Source: a virus. Taken from it: DNA of 31,828 nt. The DNA is taken from UHGV virus genome UHGV-0107646; one strand, written 5' to 3'. Below are positions 6,001 through 9,000 of the stretch, in pieces (position 1 is the stretch's first letter; each line of letters starts with the position of its first letter). The position numbers were made by a program.

Positions 6001-9000
6001 AATACAGAGCCGTGTTTATTGAGTCGGTATTCAGAGTCTGACCAGAAATTATTAATCTGGTGAAGTTTTTCCTCTGTCATTACGTTATGGTCGATTTCAA
6101 TTTCTATTGATGCTTTCCAGTCGTAATCAATGATGTATTTTTTGATGTTTGACATCTGTTCATATCCTCACAGATAAAAAATCGCCCTCACATTAGAGGG
6201 CAAAGAAGATTTCCAATAATCAGAACAAGTCGGCTCCTGTTTAGTTACGAGCGACATTGCTCCGTGTATTCACTCGTTGGAATGAATACACAGTGCTGTG
6301 TTTATTCTGTTGTTTATGCCAAAAATAAAGGCCGACTATGCGGCCTGAAATTACTTAACCAATGATGCTGCATATTCGATAAGGTAAAGCTTTGGGGCCA
6401 GCCAAATTTTTAACCAAGTCATATTGGTTACTACACCAATAATAAAAATCCCCCACAGAGTCAAAACTCCAACCAATGGCATGATAAGAAGGTTAATATC
6501 TCCTTTGCTATCCCAAACCATTGTCGGCCTGTATTTGGGATTTCCCCTCTCCCATGAGTATCCTTCATCACCGATTTTACCTGTCTCAACTCTTTGGCAC
6601 TGCTTCTTCATAAACCAGAAAACCAGTGGGATTGTTAGAATGGCTATTAATGTTTTAATCAGACTGTCAACCATATTCCATAGCAGCAACTGATGAACAA
6701 CATCAGGAATCTGCGCTTGGCTGAATGAAACAGCCGCGTCTATTCCATTGCTGGCTTTTTGCAGTAGTTCTACGAGAATCTTGTTTGCTTGTTCTTCCAT
6801 ATATCCCCTTGATTGTAATAAGCATGAAATTATTTACGGCCAAAAAATAAAGGCCACCATCAGGCAGCCTTGTAGTTCTGTTTACCAAGTTCTCTGGCAA
6901 TCATTGTCGTCGTTCGTATTGTCTACACCATTGATTCTTATCAATAGTCGTAGTCATACGGATAGTCCTGGTATTGTTCCATCACATCCTGAGGATGATC
7001 TTCGAACTCTTCAAATTCTTCTTCCATATCTCACCTCAAATAAGTGGTTTGCTGCCTAATTTCATTTTCTGGCGACCAACACAAGTCATCTTGCTGTCAG
7101 TTGTTTGGATTTCCGGTAGCCTGCCGCGTAAAGAGCTACGTTTGGAAGACAAGTTGAGCCTTCATATTTTCTGGTCAGCGTTGTCAGTGTTATTACTTCT
7201 GCTCTCATTGCTGGTTTGCGCTTGCATTGCAAGACCACTCGTGAAGGGGTTGGCCTGTGTAGCTTGTCGGAGCTGATCGCCTTCTGACTTTGCAGATTTG
7301 CGCGACGAGCTCTACGGCGAGAAGCTGCGGTGCCTTTAAATTCTGTTTTTCTGGACATAGATTCCTCCCGAATAAACTTTGGCGATGCAATCTCGAAGCT
7401 CCTCCTGAGACGGTTGCTTCGGCATTGCATCCCACAGCTCATGTGGTTGGGTGATCTGGCTTTTCAGCCACGTAGTCGAGAGTTCGACGTTGTTTAAAGA
7501 GCCTGCCAGTCTGTTCCATTTAGCTTCCAGCGTCCTGCTGATGTGTTTAGTATCACCGCCGGAGGTATTTTCGTCAACACCGCTAGAGATAAAATATTAC
7601 CGCAAATGGTTATGTGCATGTTTTTACTATTGATTTATTTTTTTAAAGTTTTGCAGAGCTAGTCTGGATGTGTAGGAGCTGAATTGCGCAATGTGATAAG
7701 TGTGATTTATATTTATTCAATAAATACAATTCGTTAGGTGTGTTTTTGACGGGCTGATGGTAAAAGAAAACCCGGCGCGGAGGCCGGGCTGAAGGGGCTC
7801 ATTCTAATCGATTGATTTAATATCCCATTGAGGTCGAGAAACCAGAGTGTATCTGGGCTTGCCCTTACCAACAGTTTTTTTCAGGAACGTGGCTGTTGCA
7901 ACGCTTCCTAAGTGCTTGTTTATAATATCTGGGTCATCTACAGCTTTGTCAATGCTAGCGGTTCTGATATCAGTGTTACCTAAAACTATAAATTCACATT
8001 GGCGCTTGTTAGGAAGAGTTCCCAAAAATATAACGTTCTCAATAATTTTTTCCTGCTGAATGTTATCATTGCTGAGATGTTGATATACAGCTTCAAGCTG
8101 TTTTGGCTCTCTAAAAACGATGCTAAAACCTTGGCTTTTAAGTGTAAAAACTGTTTTATTTTCATGCAGATAATGAATGAATGCTCTGATTTTATCTAAG
8201 GCCCGAGAGTCTAAGTTTTCTATAGCATCAGACAATTCTTCATCATCATTATCCAAGCTTGCCTGAAATATTTTTCTGGCCTTATTAATAGCTTTTGCTA
8301 CTGGGGTTTCTTCATCGAATTCAAGAGGAGCATCAGGTCTAAACTCTTCAAGTACGAATCCGAAAGAACCACGGGCTGACGCGGTAATCATGAGATGATT
8401 ATTTTCTATGTTTGGTATCTTGCCTGATGCAGGAAGTGGGCCATTGAAAGAGGTTGCCAAGTAAGCTATTGCATCATTAAAACAAGATATAGCTTTTGTT
8501 CCAAATACTGCTGAAATGCCATGCGTGCCAACTACTGTTGGGCCTCTAAAAGTTAACACAGCATGCGTAGGTTCATGTTCTCGAACGTCAGCTTGTGAAA
8601 TTAATCGCTCAACTTTCTCCAGACGGTCTTCTAAGCTTTTTCGGCTAATAGAATGACTTGTTGGCATATTTTTTAATAGATTACTTATTTGCTCGCGCTC
8701 ACTGAGAGCGAAAACATAATCATTACGATTCATTGTTTGACCCCCTCAGTAGTAGCCGAATTAAGTATAGTCATTGCCACAACATCAAGTTGTGGGTTTA
8801 ACGGGATTTGGATAAATCCCTTCCACGACAGATCGCGTCTATGTGCCCACATACTGTACCAATATACAGTCATTTCAACAAGCTCATGACTTGGTAGATT
8901 AAGTTCTTGGAAGTAGGAATCTACGAAAAACTCCTTCTTAACAAAATCATGATCAAATAGCTCTGGCTTTCTACCGATTACGATTGCATCATTATCGCCA

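Follow-up and report, generated by a model that had tools for sequence, protein, structure and literature searches.

A gene for a 149-residue membrane protein in the leftward early operon of UHGV-0107646, a lambda-like prophage sequence of 31,828 nucleotides (the window in what follows), lies between two hairpins that share a short motif, and comparison with related phages identifies this interval as a real cassette-like unit and a case of ordinary lambdoid mosaicism. The explanation that we consider likely, taken as a whole, is that the gene and its intrinsic terminator form a unit of the accessory pL operon which is swapped at the terminator joint and depends on the antiterminator N for its expression, with a role of the conflict type as our guess at its function. 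Over the 731 bases compared (6230–6960) the window is 100% identical to a prophage of Escherichia coli WP9-S17-ESBL-11 that is integrated at att-lambda, beside ybhC. An earlier note on this DNA had described a 149-aa protein with two transmembrane (TM) segments, which is borne out by the list of open reading frames (ORFs) and by hydropathy, and hairpin plus U-run elements with a shared motif on both sides of the gene, which the terminator scan and a count of the motif confirm.

Flanking hairpins and the direct repeat

In the terminator scan of the minus strand a stem at 6871–6850 is followed by TATTTTTTGG (terminator A, the proximal element) and a stem at 6346–6329 by TTATTTTTGG (terminator B, the distal element; Table 1). 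RNA folding gave −16.3 kcal/mol (z −2.5) for the proximal hairpin and −10.1 kcal/mol (z −1.7) for the distal one, and by the criterion of a hairpin with a U-run both are predicted to be rho-independent terminators; the region 5500–8000 holds seven terminator-like sites where 2.1 are expected. The motif GGCCTTTATTTTT occurs exactly twice in the window, at 6321–6333 and 6843–6855 and both times on the minus strand (0.08 occurrences expected; two copies reached in 1 of 100 shuffles), and its extended form, GCCAAAAA(A)TAAAGGCC, covers 6318–6335 and 6839–6855. In alignment, terminators A and B are two alleles of the same element. The last codons of ral, GCT GCC TGA (Ala-Ala-stop), are the 5′ arm and loop of terminator A. 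Terminator A also stands behind ral in lambda, 2B8 and Sf6; in VT2-Sakai, Gally and HK633 the gene in front of it is H0090. The comparisons show a portable putative terminator, made up of a hairpin, with Ala-Ala-stop often encoded in its 5′ arm and loop, and then TTTATTTTTGGCATAAACAAC, that closes many unrelated lambdoid accessory genes.

A further repeat of 15 nt, D3 (6343–6357 and 6822–6836), was set aside as being at chance level by estimate. Within the ORF, a stretch of 18 nt (6519–6536, codons KYRPTM) is complementary at 16 of 18 positions to the 3′ arm and U-run of the distal terminator (6323–6340), and the minimum free energy fold of the 3′ part of the mRNA pairs the two, which would compete with the terminator hairpin. 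The stretch offers no variation among relatives for covariation and is absent from other alleles of the gene, and the complementarity may be due to chance.

Empty and filled sites in related phages

Lambda, 2B8 and VT2-Sakai lack the membrane-protein gene and carry one hybrid terminator at the site, in which the left flank of the window (...GTTTATGCCAAAAATAAAGGCC) is joined to the right hairpin of the window (ACCATCAGGCAGCC...). The BLAST breakpoints lie at window positions 6339 and 6843, leaving about 521 bp extra in the window relative to these three phages. The earlier note had proposed such a comparison of the flanks with gene-less relatives, and the insertion boundaries were indeed found, in the terminator motif. 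Because the gene-less relatives carry one hybrid terminator, the interval behaves as a cassette. Stx2_EH2086 and Gally have the gene together with both terminators, Sf6 has it with another central allele (gene 34) and HK633 has a shortened form. When the 731-bp sequence was used as query, partial matches were obtained in 2,257 of 5,426 complete E. coli genomes and matches of at least 80% coverage, representing the full arrangement, in 65. Neither the ORF list nor the repeat search disclosed a transposase, integrase or inverted repeat in the 521-bp segment, and the G+C content of the cassette (40.2%) is not distinct from that of its neighbours (ea10 38.5%, ral/orf28 41.1%, PreS region 40.5%). 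Either a gain of the segment in the window or, through recombination between the two repeats, a loss in lambda would fit these data equally well.

The terminator element as a joint between modules

The exact 23-mer of terminator B is present in at least 119 IMG/VR stretches, 80 of which were read. Upstream of it at these 80 loci lay members of the membrane-protein family (about 31), a 207-aa Nmad5 gene (23), a 156-aa gene (six), a 107-aa gene (five) and at least six other genes; the terminator-B core had 10 or more different cargo sequences upstream and five or more different sequences downstream. Homology between the cargo loci breaks exactly at the hairpin, and beyond the T-run only about 16 nt (GGCATAAACAACAG) are common before the sequences diverge. 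Several cargo genes end in the residues EAA or KAA by way of GCC GCA TAG within the hairpin. Ala-Ala-stop within a terminator hairpin is also seen in P22 gene 17 (final residues TAA before the stop; 2403–2423 of the stretch compared), in VT2-Sakai H0090 (1122–1148) and in the Nmad5 gene, the 107-aa gene and a 55-aa gene (IMG/VR loci L019, L023, L051 and L076), which suggests that new cargo was fused in frame to a terminator already in place.

The genomic context of 68 close homologues of the membrane-protein gene was recorded. Terminator B or a variant differing by 1–2 nt lies 3′ of the gene in about 63 of them and terminator A lies 5′ of it in 24; in about 38 the gene comes directly after N or an N remnant with no upstream terminator, and three are in a different sequence context, of the PhiR46_1 type. 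As terminator B is kept in about 63 of the 68 and terminator A in only 24, the travelling unit would be the Shine–Dalgarno (SD) sequence, the ORF and terminator B, and the bracketed look of the window is, on this comparison, what arises where such a unit lands behind a gene that has the same kind of terminator. The earlier note had taken the flanking repeats as insertion scars. This view has to be given up: because terminator B ends at least 10 unrelated genes the repeats are read as generic module joints and not as scars of the gene's arrival, and terminator A is absent in over half of the close homologues. The related proposal that the gene arrived as a self-contained moron survives in part, in that there is a precise extra segment of about 521 bp which ends in the shared motif and has its own terminator in about 90% of close relatives; what does not hold is the self-containment, as the cassette has no detected promoter and the upstream terminator belongs to ral. 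Recombination within the conserved terminator element, over about 16–40 bp, would insert, delete or swap cargo, and gene-less phages would keep a single hybrid copy of the terminator at the same spot.

The membrane-protein family

Kyte–Doolittle hydropathy places the two TM segments of the 149-aa protein at about residues 46–64 and 103–125. The protein matches PHROG 3054 over its full length (E = 2.8e-64, residues 1–149 against profile positions 1–137 of 137), and 41 of 41 diverse relatives match this family too. The close homologues (n = 516) are found in Enterobacterales prophages and are all labelled hypothetical, and a profile search extended the family, which is all-phage, to 2,587 representatives of clusters at 50% identity. 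Homologues in virulent phages lie in early regions and never beside lysis genes; they include those of the N4-like Salmonella phage SP-058 (beside the RNA polymerase II genes), the N4-like Vibrio phage 1.245.O, the phi92-like PHB05 and the Pseudomonas phage Lyrsu01. The Ralstonia jumbo phage RsoM2USA has three copies of the gene.

The commonest residue in an alignment column has a mean frequency of 0.65 over the first 45 aa and of 0.79 over the last 24 aa (WLKIWxAPKLYLIEYAASLxK in the family), against 0.20–0.31 in TM1, the loop and TM2, and the loop varies from 22 to 59 aa in length. In these alignments the TM1–loop–TM2 core is therefore hypervariable between strongly conserved termini, in which F26, P32, I132, K137 and Y143 are invariant. 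The same pattern is seen at the DNA level in Sf6, CUS-3, SPN9CC, N7 and HK633, where the ends of the gene are 92–95% identical to the window and unrelated alleles fill the centre. Amid otherwise near-identical DNA, the product is 140 aa in Sf6 (1552–1974 of the stretch compared) and 121 aa in SPN9CC (1552–1917), and the HK633 copy is truncated to 58 aa (1552–1728). Since conserved ends flank unrelated central alleles the gene is itself a mosaic. Identification of the gene in the SPN9CC/P22 slot with P22 gene 17 was considered and rejected, as gp17 is an unrelated acidic soluble protein.

An AlphaFold2 model built from a deeper alignment (predicted local distance difference test score, pLDDT, 81.6) has a long helix that continues as TM1, then a disordered loop, TM2 and a helix at the C terminus; the model from a shallow alignment was poor (pLDDT 67). 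Fold searches returned generic helical hairpins only. Scans of the 149-aa protein against Pfam (at E ≤ 1), NCBIfam and PADLOC gave no family, and in a Pfam scan of the 41 diverse relatives no family appeared in more than one relative at E ≤ 0.1, the scattered single matches being consistent with noise. A profile search of Protein Data Bank (PDB) sequences yielded a single match at E = 0.96, which was disregarded. The homology search that the earlier note had called for gave PHROG 3054 and no known protein of unrelated function; in PHROGs only families of unknown function were hit. Nothing on the family came up in the literature searched for phrog_3054, for Sf6 gene 34 and for early membrane proteins of N4-like phages.

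Expression of the gene

A consensus scan of the minus strand found no sigma-70-like promoter at 6800–6870, and the SD region is the only upstream sequence conserved across all genomic contexts of the gene. The gene is co-oriented with pL and is preceded by a terminator or directly by N. N-modified RNA polymerase reads through intrinsic terminators, and N would be needed to read through the predicted terminators here. Given the lack of a cassette promoter, the co-orientation with pL and the position behind a terminator, the gene is probably a delayed-early, N-dependent lytic gene; it would be silent in the lysogen and transcribed from pL only upon N antitermination, and is thus probably a gene of the lytic cycle rather than a prophage-expressed moron. 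The sieB genes of lambda and P22 lie on the opposite strand, have their own promoter and are prophage-expressed.

Setting of the gene in the leftward early operon

On the minus strand the order is pL, nutL, N of the 933W/VT2-Sakai type, a remnant of the C-terminus of a lambda-type N, orf28, the ral remnant and the membrane-protein gene, followed by a conserved intergenic block, ea10 (6155–5787), cIII/kil, gam and bet (Table 1). The gene does not occupy the lambda ral/sieB position that the earlier note had assigned to it: the orf28 copy and the ral remnant remain upstream (6860–7027), and sieB is absent. In the ral remnant the N-terminal MTTTIDKNQWC continues as RQYERRQ and a stop, and the C-terminal part (...IARELGKQNYKAA and stop) is in a different frame; annotation of the identical E. 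coli prophage by the Prokaryotic Genome Annotation Pipeline (PGAP) gives a 19-aa Ral fragment only. The remnant lying 3′ of the 933W-type N gene (7036–7085, minus strand) is the C-terminus of a lambda-type N (...CVGRQKMKLGSKPLI and stop) in another frame, and in many relatives the membrane-protein gene comes exactly after this lambda-type end of N.

Table 1. Coordinates of features around the membrane-protein gene of the window
Feature	Position	Strand	Basis or remark
149-aa ORF, two-TM inner-membrane protein, PHROG 3054/Sf6 gp34 family	6351..6800	-	ORF list, profile match
SD sequence AAGGGG	6805..6810	-	4 nt upstream of ATG; read from sequence
Terminator A (proximal, predicted), AAGGCTGCCTGATGGTGGCCTT + TATTTTTTGG	6840..6871	-	3′ end of ral unit; ral stop TGA (6862-6860) in loop
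Terminator B (distal, predicted), AGGCCGCATAGTCGGCCT + TTATTTTTGG	6319..6346	-	5 nt after ORF stop
Left copy of direct-repeat core, GCCAAAAATAAAGGCC	6318..6335	.	Putative recombination joint
Right copy of direct-repeat core, GCCAAAAAATAAAGGCC	6839..6855	.	Repeat search
PreS/LPR1, lambda small RNA homologue ending at tL2a	6172..6262	-	Alignment; 5′ limit inferred from reported length of ~88 nt
tL2a hairpin	6203-6182	-	Terminator scan and RNA folding; PreS 3′ end
ral remnant (pseudogene)	6860..6957	-	104-bp internal deletion relative to lambda, and frameshift
orf28 homologue, 28 aa	6941..7027	-	One substitution relative to lambda; intact
Antiterminator N, 90 aa, 933W/VT2-Sakai type	7086..7358	-	Pfam N_peptide 5.5e-32; alignment to VT2-Sakai N gene
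nutL	about 7462-7503	-	Alignment to VT2-Sakai annotation
pL promoter	7549..7577	-	TTGACG-17-GATACT

The cassette lies between the ral terminator and the PreS/tL2a–ea10 region. The block from 6172 to about 6320 hardly varies when aligned with lambda, VT2-Sakai, Sf6 and Gally. The small RNA PreS/LPR1 has been described as a product of the lytic cycle, located between ea10 and ral and with its 3′ end at tL2a (bioRxiv 10.1101/2024.10.31.621285). The exchange site is therefore directly upstream of this recently described RNA, which helps to explain the high conservation of the stretch; in the Sf6 record the PreS-equivalent element, directly beside the cassette site, is annotated tL2A/bsq4. PreS is unmatched in Rfam 15, and the scan of 5400–7900 returned the cIII thermoregulator only (Lambda_thermo at 5669–5727, minus strand, 88.5 bits), which is expected for a lambda-like cIII leader.

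At the lambda rexA/rexB position, between the cI-like repressor and pL, the window has two genes (7804–9308, minus strand) with a strong terminator after them (7790–7769). One encodes 309 aa with no family match and the other 192 aa with Pfam DUF6932 and the PADLOC candidate PDC-M63A (E = 2e-10); a prophage-expressed defence pair is plausible.

Discussion

The early operon context, dispensability, wide distribution and allele swapping of the gene together argue for an accessory membrane role in lytic growth, which could be exclusion of a secondary infection, counter-defence or host takeover. The neighbours that share its orientation in this operon segment (ral, P22 gene 17, gam and kil) serve counter-defence or the early takeover of the host. 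Our tentative guess, to which we give rather less than even chances, is an early-lytic inner-membrane factor in phage–phage or phage–host conflict. Such a protein might keep out a secondary infection, as T4 Imm does, exclusion in the course of lytic growth being possible, or it might neutralize a host defence that acts at the membrane; its working surface would be the conserved helices at the N and C termini, with the variable TM hairpin as an anchor or specificity element.

Several observations weigh against one part or another of this explanation. The promoter scan was consensus-based and would miss a weak or non-sigma-70 promoter, and TACAAT does occur 16 nt upstream of the ATG, but without a −35 element. 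PhiR46_1 has a 76%-identical homologue (3001–3450 of the stretch compared) between the Rz/lysis genes and cos, co-oriented with the late genes and without terminator B; that zone is known for prophage-expressed morons, and the timing of expression may not be fixed. Termination by both elements is a prediction, and the lambda copy of the post-ral terminator (1058–1102 of the lambda stretch) folds poorly (−6 kcal/mol, z +0.4), unlike those of the window and VT2-Sakai, which form a 9-bp stem; in lambda itself the post-ral element may be a weak terminator or non-functional. By the positive-inside rule the topology of the protein is ambiguous, with a mean of 7.0 lysine plus arginine residues in the loop against 5.0 in both termini together and opposite flank signals for the two TM segments. 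Finally, the guess at function comes from architecture and context, the protein having no homology to a characterized one.

It is possible, although on the whole doubtful, that the protein is an early host-takeover factor outside phage–phage conflict, whose conserved termini bind a host envelope or membrane-associated protein (of division, proteolysis, secretion or transport) and so improve the phage's own replication. The very strong conservation of the termini across phages of Enterobacteria, Vibrio, Pseudomonas and Ralstonia would fit this, as would the early position of the gene in temperate and virulent phages alike and the company of kil and cIII, which act on host FtsZ and FtsH. Against this reading, the gene is dispensable, many close relatives lacking it, and swapping of central alleles is more easily explained by conflict. 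Allele diversity of this kind, fitting an arms race, is equally a point for a prophage-expressed moron, the reading closest to that of the earlier note, with its own promoter in the lysogen and a membrane protein which, like SieB, SieA or HK97 gp15, shields the host through superinfection exclusion or abortive infection. The small two-TM accessory product, the presence or absence of the gene among otherwise near-identical phages, the sieB genes held by this interval in lambda, P22 and Oslo and the Rz–cos location in PhiR46_1 point the same way. We nevertheless regard such a moron as unlikely: no promoter-like site was seen in the cassette and only the SD sequence is conserved upstream, the gene follows a terminator or N in the direction of pL whereas sieB has a promoter of its own on the other strand, strictly virulent phages carry homologues in their early regions, and there was no match to PADLOC or to the SieB or Imm families.

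A protein of lysis timing (holin, antiholin or pinholin-like) would also be small with two TM segments, and the PhiR46_1 homologue lies about 1.6 kb downstream of Rz, but no holin family in Pfam or PHROGs was matched, the gene is in the pL operon with the lambda-family holin about 12 kb away in the identical prophage, and the virulent-phage homologues are in early regions and not beside endolysins, all of which makes this reading very improbable. Hardly credible is the idea that the flanking repeats are the target-site duplication or scar of a dedicated mobile element carrying the gene. A direct repeat of 16–17 bp at both ends and a single copy at the empty site are what such an element would leave, yet the repeat belongs to terminators of functional appearance, with which at least 10 other genes end, its upstream copy contains the ral stop codon and is present in gene-less phages, that copy is absent in more than half of the close relatives with the gene, and the 521-bp segment has no transposase, integrase or inverted repeat. 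Target-site duplication is largely refuted by the IMG/VR cargo survey and the census of 68 homologues.

The preferred explanation, exchange of a gene-plus-terminator unit at a terminator joint, has a precedent in the 'boundary sequences' or mosaic module joints of lambdoid phages, a concept that reportedly goes back to Clark et al. 2001 and Casjens et al. 2004. Like these, the terminator element is a short conserved sequence with unrelated modules on both sides; empty sites have one copy of it, an extra module has a copy at either end, and homologous recombination at the joint would fit. Unlike them, the joint in the window is an intrinsic terminator, often including the last two codons and stop of the upstream gene. 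The boundary-sequence idea for lambdoid mosaicism has been summarized (PMC3029335). Sf6 bsq4 covers the adjacent region, now PreS, and not the terminator, and a description of this terminator as a joint was not found in the literature searched, the older boundary-sequence papers being outside its reach.

Morons, as defined for HK97 and HK022, consist of a promoter, a gene and a terminator inserted between genes that are adjacent in relatives. The window resembles them in that elements adjacent in lambda, 2B8 and VT2-Sakai are separated by an extra gene that brings a terminator of its own, and differs in that the gene lacks a detectable promoter, is embedded in an N-dependent early operon and has about 40% G+C like its neighbours. 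A close counterpart is Sf6 gene 34, which belongs to the same family, occupies the same slot with the same downstream terminator and is more than 92% identical to the window in the DNA of its N- and C-terminal coding ends; its central ~85 residues (TM1, loop and TM2) are another allele, so that the 140-aa and 149-aa proteins are 54% identical overall. T4 Imm, which is an early lytic gene product, HK97 gp15, P22 SieA and the SieB proteins of lambda and P22 are likewise small phage-encoded membrane proteins, and sieB is in the neighbouring interval; there is no sequence or profile similarity between these superinfection-exclusion proteins and the window protein (Pfam empty; hhalign probability against lambda SieB 0.2%), and SieB and SieA, unlike the window gene, have their own promoters and are prophage-expressed. 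The counter-defence genes ral and P22 gene 17 share with the window gene the operon segment, the orientation and a 3′ end overlapped by a hairpin, but encode unrelated soluble proteins (hhalign probability against P22 gp17 0.2%).

More speculatively, and with the chances clearly against it, PHROG 3054 might be a widespread unrecognized class of early membrane effectors in temperate and virulent phages of Proteobacteria, in which the two nearly invariant terminal helices engage a conserved component of the host envelope and the exchangeable TM–loop–TM core sets the specificity. Such effectors might, for instance, provide general superinfection immunity in the lytic cycle or inhibit abortive-infection effectors that act on membranes. 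Separately, and just as speculatively, the terminator with Ala-Ala-stop in its hairpin might be a dedicated exchange site for the in-frame shuffling of such early accessory genes by lambdoid phages.

Current concepts are left unchanged by these results and their value is incremental. What they provide is a base-pair-resolved example of the exchange of lambdoid early accessory genes, in which a terminator also serves as the joint and, in many cargo genes, supplies the last codons. They also flag a very large phage family that lacks a Pfam model, comprises over 2,500 clusters at 50% identity, occurs in temperate as well as virulent phages and has an unusual architecture, with invariant termini around a swappable TM hairpin.

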